Positions 5,860 through 30,495 of a stretch of 30,495 bases of DNA are shown one piece after another. Origin of the DNA: a virus (taxonomy: Duplodnaviria; Caudoviricetes); the IMG/VR virus record IMGVR_UViG_3300025848_000135, positions 1-30,495 of that record; one strand, 5' to 3'. The notes beneath the pieces are model-generated. The model made no database searches, had not been told where the DNA came from, and saw only the letters and a program-made list of their open reading frames with translations. Within the stretch, counting starts at the first letter, position 1, and each line of letters opens with the position of its first letter. Made by a program: the position numbers and the translations under genes.

Positions 5860-6268
5860 GCAGAACATCGAAAAGGGGTTGGCGAGCGAGAACCTGTACG
5901 TCAAGAACACGGCCCAGAAGTTCTATCTCGAAGCCCAAAAACTGAAATGGCTGGCGGAACAAGATGCCGATCGAAGGCGCAGACTCGACGAAAACAAGCC
6001 CACTGCGATCCTCGGCGGAGGCGGCGATATCCAGTCTGCGCTCGCTTCAATCCTCGGTGAAGTCTCTCGGCTCGAAGGCGAGATCGGACGAGGAGAGGCA
6101 GACGGTGCTGACGCTGGCGAGGAAAGCGGCCCCGCTGGCGGACTGGTTGAAGATCGAGAGCCTGTTCCTGACGGCGGGACCGAAACACCTGGAGATGGCG
6201 GAGGCGTTCCACGCGAAGCCGCGCCGGCACAACCGCTTCGCCTTAATCGGGGGGAATCGGGCGGGTAA
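5663..6268 (+). CDS. Putative terminase small subunit-like protein (start uncertain)
   Basis: Helical core ATELFEQNIEKGLASENLYVKNTAQKFYLEAQKLKWLAEQD...DIQSALASILGEV directly before terL; overlaps both neighbours. Confidence 0.5.
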   Translation: MSQIVTSTPSDKSWPPPSSQESSPSNRGPRLQLGKGFRANRSERNTVVPNGLLALKISSRATELFEQNIEKGLASENLYVKNTAQKFYLEAQKLKWLAEQDADRRRRLDENKPTAILGGGGDIQSALASILGEVSRLEGEIGRGEADGADAGEESGPAGGLVEDREPVPDGGTETPGDGGGVPREAAPAQPLRLNRGESGG

Positions 6269-7493
6269 GAGCGTGTGCGGCGGTCGCATGTGCTTTGCGA
6301 AGCATTTGCGTGACGACGCGAAGCAGGGGGCGATTTACTGGTGCGTGGCCCCGACGGTCGAGAAGTCCATCGCGGGCCAGCAGCGAGAGTTGTGGGAGTC
6401 GTTGCCGAGGTCTTTGCTTGGCGACGCGACCTACAACGAGCAGACTGGTTATGGCGGGCAGAGGCCGAGCCTCGTGGTCGATCCGGGTGGAAGGCGTGTC
6501 GTGATCCGCTTCAAGACGGCGGCACAATACGATTCCGACCCGGCGAGTTTCGAGCAGGAAAAGGTGAGTGGCGCGTGGGTGGATGAGACGGTTCCAGAGG
6601 GCGTTTACAAGCGTCTGGTGCCACGACTCATCGACCTCAACGGATTCCTGCTGGTCACGACGATCCCGGACGATGAATGGATCGACGAGGCGTTCGGCGA
6701 GGAGGATTGCGACGACTTGCAGCGTGGGATTTTCGTGCGTCGGCTGACGATGTACGACAACAAGGCGAATCTTTCCGAGGAGGGCATCCGCAACGCGGTC
6801 GAGTCCATGAGTGAGGACGAGAAGCAGATGCGGGTGTACGGGAAGTCGATACACAAAACAGGGCTGGTGTACAAGGAGTTCGTCAAGGATTACAAGCCAG
6901 ACGGACACCTCATCAGGCCCTTCAAAATACCGGCGGACTGGCCGCGATACCGGGCGATGGACGTTGGAAGGGACCATCCGACGGTCTGCCTGTGGGCGGC
7001 GGTTGCGCCTAACGATACGGTCTATGTGTACCGCGAGTACGTGGCGCGGAATACGACGGTGCAGGAGGACGCGGAAAAGATCACGGCAATGAGCAAGGGC
7101 GAGGTTTACGCCGCACCGTGCATCATCGACCCTGCGGCGTATGCCGTCACCAAGAGCAACCCCAAGAGCGTCGGATTGCAGTTCCTGGAGGCGGGGGTCC
7201 GGTGTATGCCGGGCGTGCGTAGCAACAAACACCCTTCCGGCGGCGAGTTCGCGTTGGTGCAGAATGTGAAGCGGTGGCTGGAGACTTACAAGCTGATCGT
7301 GTTCGATTCCTGCCCGTACCTGATTTCCGAGTTCCGCAAGTGGCGATACGTGAGGGACAAGGAGAACAACCCGGTCGGTCGTGGTCGGTTTGTGGACGCG
7401 AACAACGACGCGCTTGACGCGCTCAAGTACCTGCTGGCGGCGAATCCGACGCACGAATCAAAGGTGGTTGAAGTGGATAGCGTCGAATGGTGA
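6105..7493 (+). CDS. terL: Terminase large subunit
   Basis: Walker A GGNRAGKS, Walker B AWVDE, nuclease motifs AMDVG and NNDALDALKY. The frame is open from 5964; the best start is GTG 6105, after GAGGAGAGG. Confidence 0.93.
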   Translation: MLTLARKAAPLADWLKIESLFLTAGPKHLEMAEAFHAKPRRHNRFALIGGNRAGKSVCGGRMCFAKHLRDDAKQGAIYWCVAPTVEKSIAGQQRELWESLPRSLLGDATYNEQTGYGGQRPSLVVDPGGRRVVIRFKTAAQYDSDPASFEQEKVSGAWVDETVPEGVYKRLVPRLIDLNGFLLVTTIPDDEWIDEAFGEEDCDDLQRGIFVRRLTMYDNKANLSEEGIRNAVESMSEDEKQMRVYGKSIHKTGLVYKEFVKDYKPDGHLIRPFKIPADWPRYRAMDVGRDHPTVCLWAAVAPNDTVYVYREYVARNTTVQEDAEKITAMSKGEVYAAPCIIDPAAYAVTKSNPKSVGLQFLEAGVRCMPGVRSNKHPSGGEFALVQNVKRWLETYKLIVFDSCPYLISEFRKWRYVRDKENNPVGRGRFVDANNDALDALKYLLAANPTHESKVVEVDSVEW

Positions 7494-7524: not shown

Positions 7525-7680
7525 GTGAGCGTCATCGAAGTGCTGTGGCTTACCGCGCTGACCGCCGTGATCCTCTGGATGCTCTGGAACCAGTGGAGGC
7601 GGTACGAGGCCGACAAGAAGTTCGAGGAAATGATCGAGGATTCCAAGGCGATCGAGGAAGCATACCGAAGGCGATTTTGA
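7525..7680 (+). CDS. Small single-TM membrane protein (51 aa)
   Basis: GTG 7525; VIEVLWLTALTAVILWMLW followed by a charged tail; TGATG coupling to the next gene. Confidence 0.6.
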   Translation: MSVIEVLWLTALTAVILWMLWNQWRRYEADKKFEEMIEDSKAIEEAYRRRF

Positions 7681-8057
7681 TGAACATCAAACGAGGGATC
7701 GACGAAAAGACGGGTTTCGCGTGGATCGAGTTCCGGCCCCAGACCAACGACGAGGAGACATGGCTTCACTCCATGCGTCCCGCGCCGGGCCAGGCGATCG
7801 AGTTCTACGAGATCAAGGGTGAGCCGCTTTGGCGAGGGTTGCGGGTGGTGAATGATTCCCCCGCTCCCAAGTCGGCGCGACCGCCGGCGGAATCCGAGAA
7901 GCCCAAGCCAGAGTCGGAGGGCAACAAAGAGAACTTCGCACAGATGAACGAGGCGGACCTGCTGACGACCATCGCCGAGAAGGGCGTGCCAATGCCCAAG
8001 GTCAAGCGGCGTGGCGACCTCATCAAGGCGTTGCAGGACCACGAGGCCAAAAAGTAA
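7680..8057 (+). CDS. Hypothetical protein with a C-terminal HeH/Rho-N-like helical motif
   Basis: ATG 7680; C-terminus MNEADLLTTIAEKGVPMPKVKRRGDLIKAL. Confidence 0.65.
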   Translation: MNIKRGIDEKTGFAWIEFRPQTNDEETWLHSMRPAPGQAIEFYEIKGEPLWRGLRVVNDSPAPKSARPPAESEKPKPESEGNKENFAQMNEADLLTTIAEKGVPMPKVKRRGDLIKALQDHEAKK

Positions 8058-8060
8058 GCA

Positions 8061-10070
8061 ATGGAAGATTCCAAAACAACGTCGCTGGTGACAAACACCG
8101 ACGCCGACACGGTTCAGTACCTTGAAGGCCTTGTCCAAGAGGCTCAGGCGATCCGTTCGCGCGAGGAGCGTCGTTGGGATCAGAACTTCCGCCGCGTGTA
8201 TGGGGACCAGTGGGACAAGAAAGCCCCCGAGGGGTTGAAGCAGTTTACGCTCAACCTCACGCAGAACGCGATCATTGCGACGGTCGCGGTGCAGACGGAG
8301 CAGCGTCCCAGGGTGCGGATCACGCCTCGAGAGACAAGTGAAGATGGGCTTGTGTATTTGAAGCCCGCCGCCGCTCAGATGCTCGCCTCGATGGGTCTGC
8401 AACTCACGCCCGATGAGATGTCGGGGATGATGCCCATTTCGCAGGAGGCGACGGAGTTGGTCACGGCCAACTTTGGGGCGCTCAGTGAGCAGGACGCCTA
8501 CGTGGTGAACGACGCGGTGGTTGCCGAGGTGCTGACGAAGATTCTCGAAACGCTCTGGGATCGGGCGGACACGGACTTCCACCTGATCCAGAACGTGATG
8601 AACACGTCGGTCATCGGCCATCAGGCGATGCTCTGCCAGTGGGACGCGGGGACGAACTCGTACCAGTTGATGAACATCCACCAGATGAACGGGTGGATCG
8701 ACCCGATTTCGACGGGGATTCACGACGCGGAGTATTTCGTCTGGGATCAGGTGGTGAGTGCGGAGGCGGCGAAGGCGACATGGCCGGAACACGCGGCGTT
8801 GATTGATTCCGTCAAGCAAACCGGGAGTATCGGTAATGCCCAAGCCAGCGGCTTCATTGCTCAAATCGGCGCGCCTTATCGTGACGTCACTTTCGAGCGT
8901 CCTATGGTGCGGGTACAGACTGCTTGGCTCCGCAACTACCGCGTGCCTATCCCTCTGGACGAGGCTCTCCAAAGCGGCGCGGTTACTGTGGCGATGGTGG
9001 ATCAGCCCGATCCAGCCACTGGACAAGTAGCGCCAACGCAGGTTGACGAAACCTACATGCTTCCGACGGGTGAGTTGACCGCCCCGGACAATGAGAACTG
9101 GCCGCACAAAACGATAATCCGTCAGGTGCAGAGGATTCTTGACACGGTGATTTCCGATGTCGAGTGCCCGTACCGTGACATCCCGATCGGGTGGAACATC
9201 AACATTCCGATCATGTATTCCCCCTACGGTCAGGGCGAACCCGACCGCCTGGAGGACTTGCAGCAGAACGTGAACCGGGTCTTTTCGATCCTTCACAACC
9301 ACCTGCAATACTACCAGTCTCCGATGGAGGTCATGCCTCAGTCGGTGAAGGATGCTCTGAAAGAGAGCGAGCGTCAGACGTTCGCCCACCCGGGCCGGCA
9401 GATCAGCGTGCCCGACGAGTTGTTCACGATGTTCGGCGGCAACGTGTCGAGCATCATGCCGATGCCGCAGTTGCCGACGAGTTACGTCCAGTACGCGGCG
9501 CAGTTGATCGACATCTTCAAGTACATCAGCGGCAACGTAGATGTCCTGTCGGGTCAGGCGAAGTCGGATTGGTCGGGCGAGTTGGTCAAGGCGTTGCAGG
9601 GTTCGGCCCGTGGCCCGATCAGCTTCAAGTCCACGAACACCGAGCGGATGATCCGCCGCATCACGCAGTTGGTCCTTGGTTGCATCCTCGACCTCATGCC
9701 GGAATCGGAATGGGCGAAGATCGTCACCAAGTATCCGCCGCACGTGCTGAAGGCGATCCGCGACCGCGCCAAGGTGTTCGACCACGACATCATCGTGGAG
9801 GTCGCGTCGGGCAAAGGCGTTGTCAAGCAGGTCGAGAACGAGAAGTACCTGGCCCTGTACGACCGCAAGGCGCTGGACGTGCTGACGCTCTTGGAGAAGT
9901 TGGAAGTGCCCAACGCCGAGATGATCGTCAAGCGTCTGGGGTTGCAGGCGTCGGCTCAGGCGATGGCCGGTGCGGCGGCTGGCGGTCATACGGACGGCCA
10001 GCAGGATCAGCAGGGGCAAGCGGCCCCCAAGAAGGAACAGAACTCCCGTCCGAGTGGTTCGGGCGGGTGA
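8061..10070 (+). CDS. Portal protein (P22-like)
   Basis: 669 aa between terL and the scaffold. Motifs YGDQWD, LNLTQ, YGQGEPDRLEDLQQNVN and ISGNVDVLSGQ, with a Q/G-rich tail. Confidence 0.85.
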   Translation: MEDSKTTSLVTNTDADTVQYLEGLVQEAQAIRSREERRWDQNFRRVYGDQWDKKAPEGLKQFTLNLTQNAIIATVAVQTEQRPRVRITPRETSEDGLVYLKPAAAQMLASMGLQLTPDEMSGMMPISQEATELVTANFGALSEQDAYVVNDAVVAEVLTKILETLWDRADTDFHLIQNVMNTSVIGHQAMLCQWDAGTNSYQLMNIHQMNGWIDPISTGIHDAEYFVWDQVVSAEAAKATWPEHAALIDSVKQTGSIGNAQASGFIAQIGAPYRDVTFERPMVRVQTAWLRNYRVPIPLDEALQSGAVTVAMVDQPDPATGQVAPTQVDETYMLPTGELTAPDNENWPHKTIIRQVQRILDTVISDVECPYRDIPIGWNINIPIMYSPYGQGEPDRLEDLQQNVNRVFSILHNHLQYYQSPMEVMPQSVKDALKESERQTFAHPGRQISVPDELFTMFGGNVSSIMPMPQLPTSYVQYAAQLIDIFKYISGNVDVLSGQAKSDWSGELVKALQGSARGPISFKSTNTERMIRRITQLVLGCILDLMPESEWAKIVTKYPPHVLKAIRDRAKVFDHDIIVEVASGKGVVKQVENEKYLALYDRKALDVLTLLEKLEVPNAEMIVKRLGLQASAQAMAGAAAGGHTDGQQDQQGQAAPKKEQNSRPSGSGG

Positions 10071-11035: not shown

Positions 11036-12151
11036 ATGGCCGTTTACAACAAGTCCGGGAACGCCATCAATCTTGATGGCTTCCACAACTACGCGGTGGG
11101 CGAACTCCTGCCCCAGCGTTTCAGTTCGTTCTACTCCCGCCTCCCCTTCTTCACCTACATCACCGGCAAGGCGAACAACACGGCCAACCTTGGCCGTCCC
11201 GCCTCGGGCGCGATCATCGGCAACAACCTGTCCCCCATCGACATGCAAATGGGCGGCGGCACCGAGATCACCCAGCGCCTGCAAACCGGCACCGTGGGCG
11301 GCTTCAAGTGGCTCGGCCTGCGTGACACGTCGGCCTCGACCGGCAACGACTCGCAGGACCAGCACAACGCGACGGCGACGTGGCGTTGGGCGCGTGCGCA
11401 GCAGCCGATCACCATCTGGAACAGCACGGTTCTCGCCTCCAAGCCCGACAAGTACAAGATCGCCGACGCCCTGCGTGAGGCGGTTGAGGAGGCCACCGAG
11501 CAGCTTTTCACCAACCTCAATCTCGCCTACCTGCGTGGCAACCCCACCAGCCAGTCCGCCGACGTTTGGGACAGCCCCCTCGGCGTTCTCCAGGCGATGG
11601 ACACGGACAACACCTACGCCAACCTCGACCGCGCCAGCGTGACCTCGTGGGCGTCGAACCGCGTGACCACGGCCAAGCCCATCAGCCTCTCGCTGATCGA
11701 CGACGCCAACATCACGCAGGGCGCTCAGGACAAAGGCCCCGGCATCGACTTCGTTCTCGTCGGCAAGGCCAACTACCTCAAGCTCAAGGGTGAAGCCCTT
11801 GCTCGTGGTCAGTCCGTCACGGTCGGCGACATGCCCGAGGCTTCCAAGGTCGGCGTCAAGCAGGAGTGCATCAAGTACGGCAACGTGACGATCACCTACG
11901 ATCCCACGTTCACCGGCAACTGGTCGTCCTACGACAGCGACGTGACCGACGCGACGAAGCTCATGCTGTGCTTCACCTCCGACTCGTGGAAGTGCTACTT
12001 CCACCCGGACGGCAACTTCAAGGTGTTCCCCTTCCACGACGAGTCTGAGCGTGCCGGTGGTCCTGACTGCGTGACCTCACGCATCCAGGTCATGACCATC
12101 CTCCGCTGTGCCAAGCCGTGGCAGAACGTCGCGTACACCAACGCCAGCTAA
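11036..12151 (+). CDS. Major capsid protein
   Basis: 371 aa, RBS AAAGGA, strong C-ending codon bias, follows the scaffold. Contains PLGVLQAMD...YANLDRA...W. Confidence 0.85.
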   Translation: MAVYNKSGNAINLDGFHNYAVGELLPQRFSSFYSRLPFFTYITGKANNTANLGRPASGAIIGNNLSPIDMQMGGGTEITQRLQTGTVGGFKWLGLRDTSASTGNDSQDQHNATATWRWARAQQPITIWNSTVLASKPDKYKIADALREAVEEATEQLFTNLNLAYLRGNPTSQSADVWDSPLGVLQAMDTDNTYANLDRASVTSWASNRVTTAKPISLSLIDDANITQGAQDKGPGIDFVLVGKANYLKLKGEALARGQSVTVGDMPEASKVGVKQECIKYGNVTITYDPTFTGNWSSYDSDVTDATKLMLCFTSDSWKCYFHPDGNFKVFPFHDESERAGGPDCVTSRIQVMTILRCAKPWQNVAYTNAS

Positions 12152-12907: not shown

Positions 12908-13780
12908 ATGCAGAGTCCGATCAACGGCGTGGTTGTCATGTCGGTCAACGACCGCATGATGTTCACCAAGACGGCCTTCAACCTGTTCGACTCGATCATC
13001 CGATTCGGGATGCCGGTCATGCGGGGTGCTGGTCCGTATTGGGAACAGTCGCTCCAGAACGCGATCCATAGCGCGGTCCACTCCAACCACCCCAACACCG
13101 GCAAGCCGTTCGACTATGTGATCTTCTTCGACGGCGACAGCGTGTGGGAACCGGACGACCTCCAGCGGCTTGTGACGGTGCTGGAAAAGAATCCGCAGTA
13201 CCATGCGGCTCAGGCGGTGCAGGCGGATCGCAACGCGGACAAGCCGCTTGCGTTCGCGTGGTTGCACGAGTTGGGCATCCAGTACGACCACGGCAAGCCG
13301 GTCACGGAGATCATCCACGGCCACTTCGGGTTTACGGTCATCCGTGCCGACGTGTTCCGTAAGATGTCCAAGCCGTGGTTCTGGTCCACGCCCAACGAGG
13401 ACGGGACGTGGGACCTGGGCCGCGTGACTTCCGAGAACGGCACGATCAAGTTCATCGGCAAGCGCGACCCGGACACCAACTTCTGGCTGAAGTTCAAGAA
13501 CGCCGGATTCAAGGTCGTGCAGGTCAATCAGGTCGTAGTCGGTCACATGGAGTTGATGTGCCGATGGCAGGAAGGCCCGCGTGTCGTTTCGCAGACGATG
13601 CGGGAGTTGGAGAACGACGGCAAACCCGAAGGACTCCGATCCCCGTTTGTCGGTGAGTTGACGCCCGATCAGATGTCGCGTGGACCGGGCGGGAATCCGC
13701 TGCCGCCCCCGCGATCAAATGTGGAAGTGAAGCCGCCCCCGATTGCCCCCGGTGATATACTACCGGAGGGCAACCAATGA
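12908..13780 (+). CDS. Glycosyltransferase, GT-A/GT2-like
   Basis: DxD motif in FDYVIFFDGDSVW, plus HFGFTVIRADVF and DPDTNFW...GFKV...VGH. Confidence 0.75.
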   Translation: MQSPINGVVVMSVNDRMMFTKTAFNLFDSIIRFGMPVMRGAGPYWEQSLQNAIHSAVHSNHPNTGKPFDYVIFFDGDSVWEPDDLQRLVTVLEKNPQYHAAQAVQADRNADKPLAFAWLHELGIQYDHGKPVTEIIHGHFGFTVIRADVFRKMSKPWFWSTPNEDGTWDLGRVTSENGTIKFIGKRDPDTNFWLKFKNAGFKVVQVNQVVVGHMELMCRWQEGPRVVSQTMRELENDGKPEGLRSPFVGELTPDQMSRGPGGNPLPPPRSNVEVKPPPIAPGDILPEGNQ

Positions 13781-14442
13781 TGGTCGTTTACACCCATCTC
13801 GGACTCGGCGACCACATTATCTGCAACGGTCTGCTTCGTGACTTGGCTCGCCGTCACGGTCGGGTGTTCACGTTCGTCAAGCCGCACAACTACGAGTCCG
13901 TGCGGGCGATGACGGCTGGCGCGAACATCAACACGATTGTCGCCGGCGACGCCGAGGCGATGGAACTCCTGTCGTGGATGGTTCCGCAGGGGTTCAAGGT
14001 CATCGGGCACACGCACCTCGACCGCTCGCTTGGATTCGACAAGTCGTTCTATCAGAACGCGGGCCTGCCGTTCGAGCGACGCTGGATCGGGTTTGACGGA
14101 ATCCGGTCAAAGATGCGGGAGTCCGACCTGATCGACAAGATCAAACTGCCGAGCGAGTTCGTGTTCGTGCATGACGATGTTTCGCGCGGGTACGTGATCG
14201 ACGATTCGATGGTCACGAAGTTGCCGGTGGTTCGCCCGCTGCCGGGATTGACCGCCAACATCTTCGACTGGATGGGCGTGATCGAGCGTGCGAAGTCGGT
14301 CCACCTGATCGAGTCGTCGTTCGCGTTCATGGTCGATTCGTTTCCGGCGATGGACAAGGAAATCGTGCTGCACCGCTACGTCCGCAAGCTCGATTACGGG
14401 TGCGTTCCGACGTACCGCCTGCCGTGGGAAATCATCGAATGA
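13777..14442 (+). CDS. Putative glycosyltransferase-like protein (HLGLGD motif)
   Basis: N-terminal YTHLGLGDHIICNG and C-terminal VHLIESSF, resembling GT-B/GT9-like patterns. Confidence 0.55.
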   Translation: MMVVYTHLGLGDHIICNGLLRDLARRHGRVFTFVKPHNYESVRAMTAGANINTIVAGDAEAMELLSWMVPQGFKVIGHTHLDRSLGFDKSFYQNAGLPFERRWIGFDGIRSKMRESDLIDKIKLPSEFVFVHDDVSRGYVIDDSMVTKLPVVRPLPGLTANIFDWMGVIERAKSVHLIESSFAFMVDSFPAMDKEIVLHRYVRKLDYGCVPTYRLPWEIIE

Positions 14443-14966
14443 AGGGCTACAAGGACGCGATCCGCAAGTCGATGGCGTTTCTTGCGAAGGACCGCAAGCG
14501 GGTTTTTCTCGGGTACTGCACGAAGGTCGGACTGGCGGGCGGAACGCTCGACCTCGTGAAGCCCAAGAAGCTGATCGAAATGCCCGCCGCCGAGAACCTG
14601 GTCGCGGGCGTCGCAATCGGGATGTCGCTTCGCGGGTACAAGCCGGTGGTGTGGTTCGAGAGGATGGACTTCATCCTCAACGCGCTCGACGCGATCGTGA
14701 ACCACGCCGACAAGATGGCGGAAATCTCGCGTGGCGATTACGTACCCAAGGTGATCTTCCGGGTGAACGTCGGCGGGAGTGCGAAGCCGCTCTACACCGG
14801 CCCGACGCACACGCAGGACTTCACCGAGTCGCTTCGGAAGATGATGACGACGATCCGGGTGTTGAACTGTAAGACACCGATGGGCGTGACGTTCAACTAC
14901 GAGATGGCGGCGGAGATCGCGGAGAAGGAATCAGTGATTGTGGTCGAACGAAGGGACTTGTGGTGA
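14439..14966 (+). CDS. TPP-dependent enzyme beta subunit (E1-beta/transketolase pyrimidine-binding domain only)
   Basis: ATGA coupling. LIEMPAAENLVAGVAIGMSLRGYKPVV...MDFILNALDAIVN...GPTHTQ; lacks the C-terminal domain. Confidence 0.85.
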   Translation: MKGYKDAIRKSMAFLAKDRKRVFLGYCTKVGLAGGTLDLVKPKKLIEMPAAENLVAGVAIGMSLRGYKPVVWFERMDFILNALDAIVNHADKMAEISRGDYVPKVIFRVNVGGSAKPLYTGPTHTQDFTESLRKMMTTIRVLNCKTPMGVTFNYEMAAEIAEKESVIVVERRDLW

Positions 14967-17050
14967 CAACGAACCGCTACAGCAACTACAAGTTGATCCG
15001 CTTCCCCGGCAAGATCAAGTCGTTCCTTGACGGGAAGATCACGGCCCCGCTGTACGTTCGCATCAAGCCGCTGAACGCCTGCAATCACAAGTGCAACTGG
15101 TGTCTGGTTGCGGGGACAATGATTGCGACGCCAGACGGCGACGTGCCGATTGAAAGGCTAACGATTGGCGACTACGTTTATGGCCCAACCGGTCGGGTAT
15201 GTCGAATCACAGAGACAAGCCGCCGCCATGTGGACCGGATCAACTGGATTGAATGTGGCGGGCGAAGGGTGGGGTGCAGCGACGAACACCCGATCCTTAC
15301 GCAAAGGTCATGGGTTCCAGCGAGTGATGTCCAGCACGGAGACGCCGCCGTTGTGCGAGTGCGGATGCGGGAATCGCGTCCTGTCGCATCGCGGAGTTTG
15401 GAACCGATTTCTGCAAAACCATCAGTTGCGTGGAGTGAAGTTGCCGGAGACGCGACGACAATCCATGTCGGATCGCATGAAGGCCAACAACCCGATGCGT
15501 CGGCCAGAGATTGCGGCGAAAGTCGCATTGAATCACAAGTTGAATCCAAAGAAGTTGGCGGACTGGCACATCAAGAAGCTCGCGGACCTATCGCGGAAGA
15601 GAATGATGGGCGATGGCAACCCGATGCGGAATCCGCAGGTTGCCATGAAGGTAGCGACAAAGAATCTTCTGGCGAGGGGAACATCGAAGTACGAGGACGC
15701 CTTCTGGCAATGGGTGATCGAGAACAACCTGCCCATCGAAAAGACCAGCACCGGGGAAATGTGGATTGGTCGGAGAAACCCGGACTTCCGCGTTCCGAAC
15801 CAAAAGAAGTGCATCGAGTTGACGCAGAACATGTGCTTCATCGGGTACGAACGTCGGATACGAACGATGGACAGCTACGCAATCCCGAGCATTCAGCACT
15901 ACAACAGCAAGGGATGGAACTGTCTGGTGATATACGGTCGGTCGAAACAGCGGTTCAAGATGGAGTTGGCGCAGGTCATTCTCGACTACGCATCGCCGGA
16001 ATCGAACTGGAGCGGGGTCTGGAACTACAAAGAGTTGATTCGATCCGACGCGAAACCGGTCGGTTTGAAGTGTTCAACTTTGCCTGCGACCCAGACGAGT
16101 CTTACGAGGCCAATGGCATCGTAGTGCATAACTGCATCTACGGCCACGGCACGAACGAAACCGTGATGCACGACGGCATGGACGACCGCGACAAGATCAC
16201 GACGCCACGCCTGACTGAAATCCTGGCCGACCTTGCCGACATCGGCGTGAAGGCGATTACATTTTCGGGCGGCGGCGAGCCGATGGCTCACCCCGGTATC
16301 CGAGAGGCGATGTGGACATGTGTGGATCGCGGGCTTGACTTCTCGTTCATCACGAACGGGTCATTCCTTCGCGGCGACAACGCGACGCTCGCCAAGCGTG
16401 CCAAGTGGATTCGCGTGTCGATCGACTATTGGGATGGCGACAGCATCGCCAAGTCGCGGGGCGTGAAGCCTGATGAGTTCTTGAAGATCGACGGCAACAT
16501 GCGCGGGTTCGTGGACATGAAGGAGGATTGTGAACTCACGATCAACTTCATCGTCACGCATGAGAATCACGAACGGCTGCTCGACGTTGCGACCTGGCTT
16601 CGCGGGGTGGGCGTTGACAATGTGCGGTTCTCGCCGGTGTGGATGGACAACTTCCACGAATACCACGAGCCGATCCGAAAATACGTCGAGGAACAGTTAG
16701 CGTGGGCGACGCGGTTGCAGACCGACAAGTTCAAGGTGTATTCGTCGTACCGCATCGACCCCAACGCGAAACTTCGCGGGTATGACAAGTGCTGGTTCCA
16801 GCAGGTCGTTCCGGTGATCGGTGCGGACGAGTGCGTGTACGCCTGCCACAACACGGCGTACAGCGACAAGGGGCGGATCGGCACGATCAAGGGCCGCAAG
16901 TTCAGCGACCTGTGGTTCAGCGACGAGGCAAAGGCGTGGTTCGATAAGTTCAACGCCCGCGAACAGTGCAACGGGATTCAGTGCGCCGCCGAGTCCAAGA
17001 ATGTGCTTTACAACGAGATCGTGAACTCGGGCACCGACAACTTTGTGTGA
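14963..17050 (+). CDS. Radical SAM enzyme with a SPASM/twitch-like C-terminus, intein-containing
   Basis: GTGA coupling. After intein removal the motif reads CNHKCNW-CIYG (CxxxCxxC). Also FSGGGEP, ITNG, RVSID and CWF...IGADECVYAC...IG. Confidence 0.9.
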   Translation: MTTNRYSNYKLIRFPGKIKSFLDGKITAPLYVRIKPLNACNHKCNWCLVAGTMIATPDGDVPIERLTIGDYVYGPTGRVCRITETSRRHVDRINWIECGGRRVGCSDEHPILTQRSWVPASDVQHGDAAVVRVRMRESRPVASRSLEPISAKPSVAWSEVAGDATTIHVGSHEGQQPDASARDCGESRIESQVESKEVGGLAHQEARGPIAEENDGRWQPDAESAGCHEGSDKESSGEGNIEVRGRLLAMGDREQPAHRKDQHRGNVDWSEKPGLPRSEPKEVHRVDAEHVLHRVRTSDTNDGQLRNPEHSALQQQGMELSGDIRSVETAVQDGVGAGHSRLRIAGIELERGLELQRVDSIRRETGRFEVFNFACDPDESYEANGIVVHNCIYGHGTNETVMHDGMDDRDKITTPRLTEILADLADIGVKAITFSGGGEPMAHPGIREAMWTCVDRGLDFSFITNGSFLRGDNATLAKRAKWIRVSIDYWDGDSIAKSRGVKPDEFLKIDGNMRGFVDMKEDCELTINFIVTHENHERLLDVATWLRGVGVDNVRFSPVWMDNFHEYHEPIRKYVEEQLAWATRLQTDKFKVYSSYRIDPNAKLRGYDKCWFQQVVPVIGADECVYACHNTAYSDKGRIGTIKGRKFSDLWFSDEAKAWFDKFNAREQCNGIQCAAESKNVLYNEIVNSGTDNFV
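15101..16132 (+). mobile_element. Intein, 344 aa, inserted before the third Cys of the radical SAM motif
   Basis: Block A CLVAGTMIATPDGDVPIERL, block B CSDEHPIL, block F VFNFACDPDESYEANG and block G IVVHN|C. Confidence 0.93.
15327..16124 (+). CDS. Putative homing endonuclease (Vsr/DUF559-like) nested in the intein in the +1 frame
   Basis: 265 aa from ATG 15327 (frame open from 15165). PLCECGCG...RF...H, two NPM motifs, and SKYE...RNPDF...KKCIEL...HY..KGWNCLVI. Confidence 0.8.
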   Translation: MSSTETPPLCECGCGNRVLSHRGVWNRFLQNHQLRGVKLPETRRQSMSDRMKANNPMRRPEIAAKVALNHKLNPKKLADWHIKKLADLSRKRMMGDGNPMRNPQVAMKVATKNLLARGTSKYEDAFWQWVIENNLPIEKTSTGEMWIGRRNPDFRVPNQKKCIELTQNMCFIGYERRIRTMDSYAIPSIQHYNSKGWNCLVIYGRSKQRFKMELAQVILDYASPESNWSGVWNYKELIRSDAKPVGLKCSTLPATQTSLTRPMAS

Positions 17051-17057
17051 GGCAACG

Positions 17058-17651
17058 ATGAACCGCGAAGGGTTGATCGCGTTTGAGAAGAAGGTCGAGG
17101 CGTTGTGGCTGGAGGGGCGCCTGCCGTTCCTGTTCCACCTGTCGGGCGGCAACGAGGACATCCTGCTCGACGTGTTCGCGGGGATTCGCAAGAACGACTA
17201 CGTGTTCTCGACGCATCGAAGCCACTACCACTACCTGCTCAAAGGCGGTGGTGAGGACAACCTGCTCGACATGATCCTCGCCGGTCGGTCGATGTTCGTG
17301 TTCGACAAGCGGATCAACTTCCTGTCGTCGTCGGTGCTTGGCGGGTGCTGTGGGATCGCGGCTGGCGTGGCGATGGGGTTGAAGATGTCGGGATCGAAGT
17401 CGTGGGTGCATTGCTTCGTCGGCGACGGTGCGGCGGACAACGGGCACCTGTACGAGGCGGCGAGGTTGGTGGACGCGAAGGGGTTGCCTTGCACGTTCAT
17501 CATTGAGAACAACGGGGTATCGGCTGGCGCGACAAGGGACGAGCGTGGTGCGAAGTCGATCCTCAACGCGGATTGCGTGTGGGAATACAACTACACGATG
17601 ACGCAGCCGCACTGCCAGACGAACAACAAAACGAAGGTGACGTTCAAGTGA
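17058..17651 (+). CDS. TPP-dependent enzyme alpha subunit (E1-alpha-like, short)
   Basis: HLSGGNE, STHRSHYH and the TPP-binding motif GDGAADNG...IIENN. Confidence 0.88.
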   Translation: MNREGLIAFEKKVEALWLEGRLPFLFHLSGGNEDILLDVFAGIRKNDYVFSTHRSHYHYLLKGGGEDNLLDMILAGRSMFVFDKRINFLSSSVLGGCCGIAAGVAMGLKMSGSKSWVHCFVGDGAADNGHLYEAARLVDAKGLPCTFIIENNGVSAGATRDERGAKSILNADCVWEYNYTMTQPHCQTNNKTKVTFK

Positions 17652-25988: not shown

Positions 25989-26245
25989 TGGTGCAATGCT
26001 CCAAATGGTCTGACTGCGGCGTTCCATCGGGCGGCTGTTGCTCGGACGGCCACTTCGGCGGGCGTCCCTCGGCGGGCACCTGCATGATCGCGTGCGGGCA
26101 CTACGACGGACCATCGCGCGGCGTGGGTGACACAGTAGCGAAGGTGCTGGCGGTGGTGGGCGTGAAGAAAACAAGCGGATGCAACTGTGCGAATCGGCAG
26201 GTTGCCTTGAATCAGATGGTTCCTTACAAGAAGGACGGCGTATGA
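25988..26245 (+). CDS. Small Cys-rich protein (GxGDTVAK...GCxC..RQ..LN type)
   Basis: TGATG coupling, ATG 25988; 85 aa. Confidence 0.7.
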   Translation: MVQCSKWSDCGVPSGGCCSDGHFGGRPSAGTCMIACGHYDGPSRGVGDTVAKVLAVVGVKKTSGCNCANRQVALNQMVPYKKDGV

Positions 26246-27360
26246 GCGCACTCGGATCAATGTACTACCAAAACCAGCGGGCCGAGATGCTTCGTCAGAA
26301 GGCGATGGAGGACGAGCAGGCCAAGCGACAGCAATGGGACACCTTCCGCCAGAACTTGCCGGAACGTAATGACACCTACCAGCGATCCATTGGGTTCATC
26401 CCAACGCGATTGCAGGAACAGTTCATCCGAAATGCTGGCGGCGATGTTCAGCGTGGATTGTCGGACTACCAGCAACAGGATGCGCTCGAACGCGAGAAGC
26501 TTGGTTTGCCACCCAAGTATGGCGTCAACGACGCATTGAACCGCCGTATCCGTCCGCTTGGCGGCGCTCCCGGCATCCCGCGAATCCCTGATGCTATTGT
26601 CCAACGCATCGGCCACATCGACCGCGCGACTTCGATGGGTCTTTCTCCCGAAGCCCTAACCCAGCGCGACTTGCAAGAACAAGCCCAGCGATTCGGTCTT
26701 GACGCCCAGCGGTTGCAGAACGAACGATTCTCCACTGAAACCGGCGAGATCGCCCCCAACGCACTCGCCCAGCGTAACCTCATGGGTTCGCAGGGCGTGT
26801 TGTACGAGGGCCAAGGCGCGGCGGCTCGCGGGCAAGGCACGCTCTATGAGGGTCAGGCGAACGTGGCGAACACGAACGCGGACCTCATGCGTCGCGCCGC
26901 CCAGACCTGGGGCAACCGCCAACTCCCCGCCGACCCGGGGATCAGCCCGATGCCGCAACAGGGTGGTGATCCGATCCTCCCGCCCGGCTACACGTCGCCG
27001 AACAATCCGCCGCCGGTTCCCGCATCGGTCCAGTCGGCGTTGATCCGCCAGCAGACGCAGCGTGAATCGTCGCAGGCCGATGCGGATTTGAGAATGAAAC
27101 TGTCGGATCGTTCGTTTGCCGGCAAGGAGTGGGAGCGTCTAAATAAAATCCTCAACCCCTATTCCGGCGCATCGGACGAGGAAAAGCAGGCGGCGCGTGA
27201 ACAGATGGCGATCATCAGCAAAATGCACCCCGATATTTTCCAAACATCGGGCGGCGGTGGGAATATCCCCACGCCAAAGACTAAGGCTGAATACGACGCG
27301 CTGCCTTCCGGCACGGTTTACATTGACCCGCAAAGCGGCAAACAGGCAAAAAAGAGATGA
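26242..27360 (+). CDS. Putative internal virion/ejection protein
   Basis: ATGA coupling; Q/R/A-rich and helical; C-terminal KAEYDALPSGTVYIDPQSG. Confidence 0.65.
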   Translation: MSALGSMYYQNQRAEMLRQKAMEDEQAKRQQWDTFRQNLPERNDTYQRSIGFIPTRLQEQFIRNAGGDVQRGLSDYQQQDALEREKLGLPPKYGVNDALNRRIRPLGGAPGIPRIPDAIVQRIGHIDRATSMGLSPEALTQRDLQEQAQRFGLDAQRLQNERFSTETGEIAPNALAQRNLMGSQGVLYEGQGAAARGQGTLYEGQANVANTNADLMRRAAQTWGNRQLPADPGISPMPQQGGDPILPPGYTSPNNPPPVPASVQSALIRQQTQRESSQADADLRMKLSDRSFAGKEWERLNKILNPYSGASDEEKQAAREQMAIISKMHPDIFQTSGGGGNIPTPKTKAEYDALPSGTVYIDPQSGKQAKKR

Positions 27361-30300
27361 AAAGCGCCTTTGGCGATGACATCACGGATTCCGGCGAAAC
27401 GTCGGCGTTTGGCGACCCAATCCATATGGGCGACGGAACCAGCGCGTTCGGCGATCCGATCCATTCCGGCAGTCCCACGCGCCCTTCGAGCGGCGACGGA
27501 TTCACCGACTACGCCAAGCGGTTCGGCTCCGAACTTGCCACGCAGTACGGTGAGTTTGGGCGGTCGGCGGCTTCTACGCTCGGCAAGGTGGGGCTTGGGC
27601 TTCTTGAGATGCTCGGTCAGGGCGGCGACGCTCGATCCAGCTACGGCCCGCCAACCGGCAACGACGGGTTTGCCACGGCCCGCGAAGCCTTGAACCGCGC
27701 GTTGCCCACGGGCGGCGGTCAGGCCGATCCCATGTCCACGTTTGGCGGTCAGATGGCGGCAACCACGCTGCCCGCGATGGCGGCTCCGCAAGCCTACGCC
27801 CCCGTCGTTGGCGGCTTGCTGGCGGGCGGGTTGGGCTACACGACCGCCCGCGATCAAGGTGCGACGCCGAATCAGGCTCTTGGCTCGGCGGCGATCCAGG
27901 GCGCCGCTGGTGCAGCGATGGCCCGCATCCCGCACGCCACAAGCCTCCCACGCGCCATTGCGACCGCCTACCTCGCCCCCAAAGCGGGCGAACTCGCCAA
28001 CTACGCCTACGAGCGGGCGACGTATAACCCCAACGCGCCGACCCCGCAACTGATGTCCGAGCAGGACATCGTGAACACGGCGGTCGGTACGCTGGCATAT
28101 GCCGGTCCCCGCATCCCTGCGGCCCTGACCGCTCGTAACGACATGCTCAACGCCCGCGCCGAGCAGGCCCGTGCGATGGAGTTTGAGCGACAGTTGCGGG
28201 TGGGGAATGAGTTTGAGGCGCAGCAGCGGGCGGCGGAACAGCGATTCAGCCAGCAGAATCCCATCGAAACACGCCCGTCGATGGAGGATTCCGCGATTGC
28301 GCAGCAGGCGGCGGAACAGGCTCAAAGAACATCGGACGAGGTTTTCGCCCAGCGCGTTATGGGCCAGCCGACGCTTGGCGGCGATCTTGGCGTTCCAGAA
28401 GGTGAGTTGAAAACGGTTGCGAGAATCCAGGCTGAGCGAAGGTTTGACAGAAACTATCCCCCACAAGAATCGACAGTTCCACAAGATTACTCGCTTGGCG
28501 TTGGCGAAGAAGCTAATCGTCGTCAACAGGCAGATGCACAGCGTATTGCATCCGAAATGGCAAACTCTGGCGGCATGGAGGGTGGTGGCGCGGCTCCGTA
28601 TGGCGAAGATTTGGCCCAATCGAGGATGACGAGAGAGCAAAGGGCTGATCGTGCAAGGCAGATTCAATACGAGCGACAACTAAGAAAGTCGGCCCAATAC
28701 GAAGCCGCCCTTGCCGAAGCAGAAGCAAGATTTAACGCGCAATATCCAGTCGAAAGAACCGGAATCTCTACGGAAGATTCCGCCATCGCCCAACGTGCTG
28801 CGGATGTCGCATCGCGTATTGATTCCGAGCGATTCGCACTTCGCACGATGGGGATGTCTGGTCTTGAAGGCGACGCGGGGGTGCCACCGGGCGAAGCCCG
28901 TGCGGTTCAGGATCGCGGGGCTGTCCCCAGCCGTGGCGATATGGGCCAAGTCCCGCAGGATCGCGTGTCGCAGTTCTACAACCGCCAGCCGCAGGAGTCC
29001 CCGCTTCCAGAGTCCCCGTCTGGAATGGCGGCGATTGATCCAAAGACCCAAAACATCCTGTCGGCGCAGGCGGCAATGCGACCGGAAATCCCGCCGACCG
29101 TCACAACCACCGGCAACGAGCGGTATCTTGCCCGATCCGAGGCCGACGCCCAGCGATACGTCGCCTACCGCAACGCCCGAATGGGCGGCGGCGATATCCC
29201 GTTCACCTACCGCCCCAACACCGGATTGATGGCGGGGACGTTTGAGGTTGTCAGGGAGCCGTACCCCACCCCCAATAGACCGCCAGAATCGCGTCAGGAG
29301 CCTATTAGCCGCGTCCCACCCAAAGAACCGCCCAAGACTCCACCTTCGCAGCAGGAACCGCCCACGGCCAAAGCAAACGCCGAATCCGCCTACGCCACCG
29401 CCGACGAGGTATCTGCCGCAATGGCAGCCGAGGGCGTCACCCCCGAACAAGCGTCCGCGTCCATCGCCAAACTACAGGAGGCCCGCAATGCCGCTAATGA
29501 AAGGGTCCAGCCAGAAGGCAATCTCGGCCAACGTGAAGGAACTGATACGGGCGGGGCACGAACGGCGGCAGGCGATAGCAATAGCCCTGCGGCTGGCGAG
29601 AGGAAAGCCACGCAAAGCGGTAAACAACCAGCAGGATTCGGGAAGCGAGAGCTAGAAAAGAAAATCCTAGACTGGTATGACACGGTTGCGCCAACCGAGA
29701 ACGATCAAGCCGCTATGAACGATAGTGGCACTGAGTTTCGCGGACTGACAAAGGACGATCTGTCGGGACTTGCCGGGAAAGACCGACAGAAGGTACGCAA
29801 ACTCGTGCAAAGTGGCGGCGAGGATTTCCGCGCGTGGTTGATTGAAACTTACGGTGCCGAAGGCGGCGATCGCCGATACGAACGCTACAAGCAGGAAATG
29901 CTTGCCGGTCGTGGCGGTCGTTTGGAAGAAGCCAAGCGGGCCGCGATGGGTGCCGACCCAGAAATGGCTCTTGCCGCCTTCATCCACGACAACATGCCAC
30001 TGAATGAAGCGGCGGTTCCTCATCAGTCTGTCGATCCCAAGACGCTGAATGTTGGCGACACATTCAAGATTCATGGAACCGAGTGGACCGTCAAGGACGG
30101 GGAGTTTGGAAGGTTCCTAGAAAGTTCGTCGGCTAAGCACGATGTCCCCGTGGATTTCGTTGATTCGATCCCCGTCGAAAAGGGTTCATTGAAGCGTGTC
30201 CGCAGGCCGACGCAGCCTGGACTTCTTGGCGAAATGTTTGATAGCGGCGAAACCGGATCAAAGACCGGGGCGTTGTTTGGTGAGGAACCGCCCAAGGAAA

Positions 30301-30495
30301 CCAAGAAACAATCGTCTGTTGATGAGCGTATCGCAAAACAATACGATCCGACCGCAACGCCGGAAATGTTCCCGACGCCCAAGCCCCCCAAAGGCGTCCG
30401 CAACCGTGGCTTCGTTGACGTTGGCGAGGTCGGCGCCGCCGTCGAAGCCGCCGGTAAGAAGGTGATCCAACTCGCCAAACCCGTCGCCCAATCCG
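27357..30495 (+). CDS. Large putative internal virion/ejection protein, partial (at least 1046 codons)
   Basis: ATGA overlap at 27357. I read the frame manually to the window end with no stop. It starts MKSAFGDDI...SAFGDPI...SAFGDPI and is absent from the ORF track. Confidence 0.85.
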   Translation, partial: MKSAFGDDITDSGETSAFGDPIHMGDGTSAFGDPIHSGSPTRPSSGDGFTDYAKRFGSELATQYGEFGRSAASTLGKVGLGLLEMLGQGGDARSSYGPPTGNDGFATAREALNRALPTGGGQADPMSTFGGQMAATTLPAMAAPQAYAPVVGGLLAGGLGYTTARDQGATPNQALGSAAIQGAAGAAMARIPHATSLPRAIATAYLAPKAGELANYAYERATYNPNAPTPQLMSEQDIVNTAVGTLAYAGPRIPAALTARNDMLNARAEQARAMEFERQLRVGNEFEAQQRAAEQRFSQQNPIETRPSMEDSAIAQQAAEQAQRTSDEVFAQRVMGQPTLGGDLGVPEGELKTVARIQAERRFDRNYPPQESTVPQDYSLGVGEEANRRQQADAQRIASEMANSGGMEGGGAAPYGEDLAQSRMTREQRADRARQIQYERQLRKSAQYEAALAEAEARFNAQYPVERTGISTEDSAIAQRAADVASRIDSERFALRTMGMSGLEGDAGVPPGEARAVQDRGAVPSRGDMGQVPQDRVSQFYNRQPQESPLPESPSGMAAIDPKTQNILSAQAAMRPEIPPTVTTTGNERYLARSEADAQRYVAYRNARMGGGDIPFTYRPNTGLMAGTFEVVREPYPTPNRPPESRQEPISRVPPKEPPKTPPSQQEPPTAKANAESAYATADEVSAAMAAEGVTPEQASASIAKLQEARNAANERVQPEGNLGQREGTDTGGARTAAGDSNSPAAGERKATQSGKQPAGFGKRELEKKILDWYDTVAPTENDQAAMNDSGTEFRGLTKDDLSGLAGKDRQKVRKLVQSGGEDFRAWLIETYGAEGGDRRYERYKQEMLAGRGGRLEEAKRAAMGADPEMALAAFIHDNMPLNEAAVPHQSVDPKTLNVGDTFKIHGTEWTVKDGEFGRFLESSSAKHDVPVDFVDSIPVEKGSLKRVRRPTQPGLLGEMFDSGETGSKTGALFGEEPPKETKKQSSVDERIAKQYDPTATPEMFPTPKPPKGVRNRGFVDVGEVGAAVEAAGKKVIQLAKPVAQS
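29488..29655 (+). CDS. 55-aa basic protein nested in the +1 frame of the large gene
   Basis: AGGAGG at 29476-29481, a 6-nt spacer, then ATG. Sequence MPLMKGSSQKAISANVKELIRAGHERRQAIAIALRLARGKPRK... Confidence 0.75.
   Translation: MPLMKGSSQKAISANVKELIRAGHERRQAIAIALRLARGKPRKAVNNQQDSGSES

Follow-up and report, generated by a model that had tools for sequence, protein, structure and literature searches.

A conserved small phage gene nested out of frame in the linker of a giant, likely internal-virion gene

The viral record IMGVR_UViG_3300025848_000135 (Duplodnaviria; Caudoviricetes), analysed here over its full 30,495 nt and called the window below, carries a small gene that lies wholly within a giant open reading frame (ORF), hereafter the host gene, and is read one base ahead of it. 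The initial annotation had described an AGGAGG motif followed after 6 nt by an ATG that opens a 55-aa ORF in the +1 frame, and its coordinates (29476-29655) were confirmed. The inner ORF has its own Shine-Dalgarno (SD) motif and start, begins at host residue 711 and ends with a TAG. No other out-of-frame ATG ORF of at least 25 aa in the host gene has an SD or a Met-Pro start. The locus comprises the following features:

27357..30494, + strand: host giant ORF of at least 1046 aa, open at the contig end, without PHROG or Pfam assignment
29476..29481, + strand: SD motif AGGAGG of the nested gene, over which the host frame reads Q-E-A
29488..29655, + strand: nested 55-aa gene of the phrog_2423 family, read in the host gene's +1 frame, product with a pI of 11.4
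29488..29598, + strand: conserved core, nested codons 1-37, delimited by alignment, AlphaFold model and variants
29599..29655, + strand: variable tail and TAG stop of the nested gene, delimited by variants; the tail is swapped in two other runs

The host protein has a Gly/Ala-rich N-terminal part followed by a low-complexity linker. This linker had been proposed to coincide exactly with the nested gene, which held only in part: order-promoting residues are indeed scarcest at host positions 701-750 (0.08), but the low-complexity stretch already starts within the Pro-rich residues 651-700 (0.10), so that the linker extends beyond the nested gene. The nested protein contains 11 Lys/Arg and 4 Asp/Glu residues, and inspection of its sequence revealed neither Cys nor a signal-like hydrophobic stretch. 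A six-frame profile search found no second copy of the small gene in the 30.5-kb window. The locus holds a conserved phrog_2423 gene in the linker of a giant gene, and we consider it probable that this gene is translated and that its product is packed into the head, where it would bind DNA.

The combination of SD and ORF is weak evidence by itself, because 3-7% of shuffled sequences produce such a pair: when the host gene was shuffled 2000 times by each of two schemes, AGGAGG, an ATG and an out-of-frame ORF of at least 50 codons were obtained in 147 synonymous and in 60 codon shuffles. On the family profile the nested protein reaches 75.3 bits, compared to maxima of 26.6 bits for shuffles that keep the host protein (949 scored of 1000) and 5.1 bits for codon shuffles (303 scored of 1000). 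The resemblance to a small phage protein family noted initially proved to be a match to phrog_2423 (E 1.9e-15; protein residues 1-45 against positions 1-45 of the 52 of the profile), a family without assigned function. In an alignment of 35 rows, window protein included, the columns M1 P2 L3, N15, G23, Q28 and A31 I32 A33 are invariant. Pfam gave no match for the nested protein at E 0.1, nor for two relatives at E 1. DUF6496 (PF20106) is found on 38% of the members of an ESM Atlas cluster at cosine 0.89, which is a lead only; membership in this domain family was rejected, as the gathering threshold was not reached. A direct tblastn search of cultured phages with the 55-aa protein returned no match at E 0.01, and a more typical family member as query retrieved 478 records.

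To compare variation in the two frames, the gene was aligned with contigs that other public runs hold of related phages; counts refer to 40 of the 208 variant rows for the gene and to 19 of the 21 differences of the X10 contig, and X13 variants were split between two contigs by depth values. Among the variants listed, nested codons 1-37 contain 13 variable sites across four runs. In the small frame these changes are silent at seven codons (7, 16, 19, 23, 26, 32 and 36) and alter the amino acid only at H24 and R27, both variable columns of the alignment, while in the host frame all nine affected codons opposite the core change their amino acid. Host third positions account for 2 of the 13 core sites versus 33 of 38 sites outside the overlap (Fisher p 6e-6). 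Third-position variation prevails on both flanks, which marks the host frame as a genuine gene across the nested one and past it. No listed variant falls in 29455-29507, the interval with SD and ATG, in the contigs of four other runs. Thus codons 1-37 of the small frame and the host frame on both flanks are under purifying selection, although the counts are small. The pattern is reversed in the tail (codons 38-55), where X10 shows eight amino acid changes and two silent ones in the small frame, compared to six silent and four amino acid changes in the host frame. In runs X11 and X16 a different tail follows position 29598; judged by eye, it reads as P0003, a database protein identical to the nested protein over residues 1-37, and both frames are open over the letters shown. 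With homologues at hand and SD, ATG and frame conserved, the findings that the initial annotation had named as speaking against a gene did not materialise.

A free-standing gene swallowed by read-through could also have become a silent relic that now serves as host linker sequence only. The drift of tail codons in the small frame would suit such a relic, and the support for expression comes from sequence. A search for RNA data sets that contain the stretch listed none, which is uninformative on expression. A relic does not account for seven core codons with silent changes only opposite host codons that all change, nor for the invariant SD and ATG, and both the complete ORFs of the other nested cases and the lack of second copies (see below) argue against it. 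We regard it as very improbable. From sequence features, independent translation of the nested gene appears very likely.

The initial annotation had taken the family to be usually free-standing. The search for relatives agrees with this: most phrog_2423 relatives are free-standing, and in the three least-biased samples only 4 of 249 loci are nested in a giant-type frame and 245 are not (nested: 1/80, 0/49 and, with the locus L134 set aside, 3/120). For the pattern used in the 120-locus sample, ∼7400 matching stretches are estimated in IMG/VR, which roughly suggests a hundred or more nested cases. With a pattern tuned to nested copies, 13 of 61 matches lay within frames of 1000 or more codons (10 distinct), and 5 of 75 matches in genome bins were nested (L334, L340, L342, L348, L395), but such tuned DNA patterns favour nested copies and these values are not frequencies. 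Eleven other nested cases with DNA come from viral contigs (L061, L251, L252, L256, L259, L274, L277, L284, L304, L306, L233). In total, there are 17 distinct nested cases with DNA, i.e., 16 besides the window, which share a single phase and have a locus GC of 0.32-0.60. Further candidates were set aside: L353 does not belong to the family, and L134 (557 codons, GC 0.70), where the open frame continues from a terminase-like ORF, L392, L194, L181, L225 and some of shorter length are likely chance open frames in GC-rich DNA. The nested copy is the sole family copy in all ten records checked, of which five reach a completeness of 90% or more.

The hosts of these genes are diverse. Nine full-length hosts measure 1241-2470 aa and are mostly the last in a run of two or three genes rising in size; a blastp comparison of 12 hosts gave one weak pair only, and the nested copies are located at host residues 43 to 1137. 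Matches of other hosts include LPD38, the internal virion protein phrog_6651 and the virion structural phrog_6958. The host-frame reading at 15 loci was also made into a profile, which retrieved 205 proteins from 1.84 billion representatives; among the best 150 there are 24 with a length of 1000-4547 aa, and one of these is the L061 host. All 26 long matches tested can encode the family in the +1 frame at the matching place, with compatibility scores of 100-117 compared to at most 44 at sampled other offsets, although these scores are partly circular. Six of 23 scanned long matches carry LPD38, LPD23, PBECR5, InPase, methylase-helicase, FtsK-gamma or zeta-like domains, and most of these domain types occur in phage polyvalent proteins, according to PMC5512222.

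Several observations on individual hosts deserve mention. P0041, P0043, P0047 and P0152 are related hosts with the motif IYDS..KA..K or similar before the shadow of the nested gene, and in one of them a PBECR5 domain follows right after it. In L318 (G010) and L320 (G004) the giant gene is apparently split into two ORFs, the second of which, in L318, has the nested gene beginning at its residue 43; such split genes may show how engulfment proceeds. Two hosts contain further +1 ORFs (55 and 73 aa) with AGGAG, which are not basic, at residue 939 of the host L314:6474-12890 and at residue 891 of the host L320:6902-10714.

Among nine annotated regions of cultured phages, only Tunturi_3 (PP885686) showed nesting: a 54-aa member with AAGGAGG lies unannotated in the +1 frame of the annotated gp128 (222 aa, L323:2278-2946), which is not giant and has no PHROG match. 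The passages of PMC11924767 that were covered contain no proteomics. The assumption that standard gene callers miss the nested gene requires some correction, since the 55-aa protein is already present in a predicted-protein database (longest contig 2974 nt) and in the ESM Atlas. However, on long contigs the host is called straight through (P0009), and the Tunturi_3 record annotates the outer ORF only.

The single phase common to all nested cases, together with the natural fusion of the module to other proteins, could point to programmed frameshifting, by which the module would be joined to the N- or C-terminal part of the giant protein and no separate protein would be made. Yet every nested case retains the Met-Pro start typical of the family, and 10 of the 12 tested have an SD-like motif. 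The gene in the window has no slippery heptamer, and such heptamers occur in 4 of 12 nested and 55 of 205 free-standing genes, i.e., without enrichment. Moreover, the common phase may simply be the one able to stay open and hydrophilic. A frameshift product is therefore highly unlikely, and we continue with a separately initiated small protein.

How did the overlap arise? Free-standing members are found in Pbunaviruses, cyanophages, Caulobacter phages and Clostridium phages, and the module furthermore forms the N-terminus of head maturation proteases. Besides these proteases, it is the N-terminus of unrelated 200-320-aa proteins in L064, L100, L065, L056, L146 and L254. Lone chromosomal members (L331, L370, L351, L346, L347, L372) belong to Paraburkholderia, Bacteroidota, Gemmatimonadaceae, Gallionella and Alphaproteobacteria records and adjoin PfpI, UDG, DUF72, DUF488, topoisomerase IB, YegS-like or HU-like genes; a cellular role in stress or DNA protection is possible for them. 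The nested copies include at least three insert types that are also present free-standing, and 12 of 12 score best against a free-standing gene, although free-standing genes are far more numerous. At third positions of codons 17-37, T makes up 4% in nested versus 20% in free-standing genes. Nested copies shun it because the outer frame must stay open. The host reading over the nested gene is filler without constraint of its own. Since the small gene is widespread and conserved and the host frame over it unconstrained, the small gene was most likely engulfed or inserted. We hold with considerable confidence, on these sequence comparisons, that it is the older frame and that the linker tolerates its −1 reading once T-ending codons are purged.

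The initial annotation had spoken of a real overprinted gene. That the gene is real, conserved and selected in its own frame is supported, but de novo birth inside the host gene is not. Classical overprinting would require one such birth in a giant gene, from which the free-standing copies escaped later. A single nested clade is compatible with the approximately unbiased (AU) test (p-AU 0.29), but free-standing and fused forms are far commoner, across many phage groups and bacterial chromosomes, the hosts are dissimilar with the gene at very different positions, and the nested copies resemble different free-standing subtypes. Nor does the case fit the definition of de novo overprinting, in which the inner frame is younger and narrower in distribution, as the inner family is widespread and searches with the host frame over it found no relatives in viral contigs. 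We consider overprinting highly improbable and engulfment or insertion the better explanation, which, judged from the sequences, likely happened more than once. A tree of the small proteins (105 sequences) has firm support at just 1 of its 101 branches, and the nested copies are scattered on it (11 changes versus a shuffled mean of 11.6).

The conserved core corresponds to an N-terminal arm and two helices (9-21 and 26-38) predicted by AlphaFold (mean pLDDT 80, tail about 58), and searches of solved structures and folds gave no specific match (best Z 4.4). The nearest long neighbour is a terminase, portal, head morphogenesis, scaffold, capsid or adaptor gene at 25 of 51 free-standing loci; others lie near tail or lysis genes, and 11 have no annotated neighbour. 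The family member gp22 of Pbunavirus SCUT-S1, encoded between head morphogenesis and protease genes, was detected in virion ghosts by mass spectrometry with seven peptides and 77% coverage (Table 1 of PMC6521218), and KPP22 ORF084 is annotated as virion protein. We propose that the nested frame would be translated from its own SD on late mRNA and that the small basic two-helix protein would be packed inside the head, where it may bind DNA. A virion location of the product is probable. The inference of DNA binding is drawn from the basic charge, the lysine/arginine tails of most relatives and the chromosomal members near PfpI, UDG, DUF72 and topoisomerase IB; DNA, rather than coat or portal, has about an even chance of being the partner.

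Alternatively, the gene could be real and translated and its product a capsid-targeting or scaffold-like hairpin, whose partner would be the portal or the inner coat, or which would accompany the giant protein on its way into the prohead. The predicted two-helix hairpin resembles the coat-binding helix-turn-helix of the P22 scaffold and Pa193 gp24, as described in PMC11456595, head maturation proteases and other proteins carry the module as an N-terminal fusion, free-standing genes often adjoin portal genes, and the SCUT-S1 member is retained in DNA-stripped ghosts. However, lone chromosomal members stand among non-phage genes, and members co-occur with very different capsids (Pbunavirus, Acinetobacter, Caulobacter and cyanophage records). 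In addition, the top fold matches lack a scaffold domain, though the fold is too small for a clear call. We regard such a hairpin as the main rival, possible though doubtful, and favour a head-packed, DNA-binding protein.

Several points weigh against this interpretation as a whole. Translation of the nested copy is inferred from its sequence, and the presence of the SCUT-S1 protein in DNA-stripped ghosts agrees with a shell-bound as much as with a DNA-bound protein. The variants counted are few and come from related assembled contigs or haplotypes at depth 2-12. The window is a partial genome and a second copy could lie beyond it, and its host gene, truncated by the contig end, gave no match to a family. 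To these come the bias of the tuned patterns and the circularity of the compatibility scores mentioned above, and, against several origins, the AU test.

The window represents a 30.5-kb partial phage genome with terminase, P22-like portal, SU10-type capsid gene and adaptor. In this phage the host gene is the largest and last of a set 3′ of the head and neck genes. The neighbouring features are:

26179..27360, + strand: 393-aa ORF directly 5′ of the host gene, likely the middle gene of an ejection-protein set, without family match
5964-7493, + strand: terminase large subunit, from family matches
8061-10070, + strand: P22-like portal, from family matches
11036-12151, + strand: major head protein, from family matches; SU10-type capsid gene

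From gene order and the other hosts, the host product is likely a large internal virion protein of the ejection or polyvalent type, and gene order in the other nested cases likewise makes the 393-aa ORF a likely middle gene of the ejection set. The term ejection-type, applied to the host from the beginning, is thus backed by position and architecture but not by a family match: PHROG and Pfam searches matched no polyvalent or internal-virion domain in the 1046 host residues, in a host gene cut by the contig end. No relatives were found in viral contigs with either the host-frame peptide over the nested gene or the capsid protein as query, host residues 560-1046 had none among long proteins, and host-frame peptides gave nothing meaningful against cultured phages. 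The capsid gene of this phage is present on a 36-kb contig. For comparison, phi24B gp47 has been proposed as an ejection protein (bioRxiv 10.64898/2026.04.10.717836).

Two other regions of the window stand apart from the nested gene. Between the capsid and the tail/adaptor genes, the region 12908-17651 holds a family-2 glycosyltransferase-like gene, a thiamine-pyrophosphate enzyme in two halves (14400-14966 and 17043-17651, both phrog_34187) and, between these halves, a radical SAM/SPASM gene with a Hint/intein match (14960-17050); a virion- or surface-modification cluster is possible. The ORF 7545-8057 between terminase and portal has a weak endonuclease VII match (E 0.002) and is possibly a free-standing homing endonuclease.

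Few nested gene pairs are known in tailed phages, and overlap is usually explained by a new gene born inside an old one. An old, widespread gene within many dissimilar giant genes points to the reverse route of overlap formation, and its repeated occurrence offers natural replicates in which the formation and recoding of overlaps can be followed. It also means that a virion protein family is overlooked wherever it is nested and that motifs in giant-protein linkers can be artefacts of a hidden frame. Cultured Pbunaviruses give access to the function of the family, and Tunturi_3 to the nested layout. More tentatively, and with rather low confidence, we suggest that linkers of giant ejection or polyvalent proteins are recurrent landing sites and that nesting is functional, coupling the giant protein to the production of a small basic partner, which would assist in loading the giant protein into the capsid or releasing it from there. 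If so, overlaps arise many times by a new frame engulfing an old gene, and part of the low-complexity linker sequence in databases is the shadow of hidden genes.

The closest known layout is Rz/Rz1 of phage lambda, where a complete small spanin gene that starts on its own is embedded, in the +1 frame, in a larger late gene; in other phages the two are separated. Rz and Rz1 together make up one lysis machine and share homology as a pair; the inner gene encodes a lipoprotein and the outer one a small membrane-anchored protein of the lysis cassette. The pair in the window shares the embedded +1 layout with its own start, but its inner product is a soluble basic protein, its hosts are 20-50 times longer and for the most part unlike one another, and the two products are not known to be linked in function. 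A spanin identity was rejected, given an inner protein without Cys or signal-like stretch and an outer ORF of more than 1000 aa. With known phrog_2423 proteins (SCUT-S1 gp22, KPP22 ORF084 and the protease N-terminus of BcepB1A gp26) the nested gene shares the family, with Met-Pro start, N15, G23, Q28 and AIA, as well as the late or head-gene context; however, these members are free-standing or N-terminal fusions, whereas the copy in the window lies out of frame inside a giant gene. As for polyvalent and giant ejection proteins, LPD38, LPD23, PBECR5, InPase or methylase-helicase domains occur in other hosts of the nested gene, which stand among virion genes; the host in the window differs in having no such domain match in its 1046 residues. 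A word search for overlap in PMC5512222, which treats polyvalent proteins, had 0 hits, with no mention of overlapping genes in the text covered, and a literature search at the level of titles and abstracts, with subscription papers thinly represented, found no description of small genes nested in giant virion genes. The fully nested layout is that of Rz/Rz1, but the genes are unrelated to spanins and their history appears reversed compared to overprinting.
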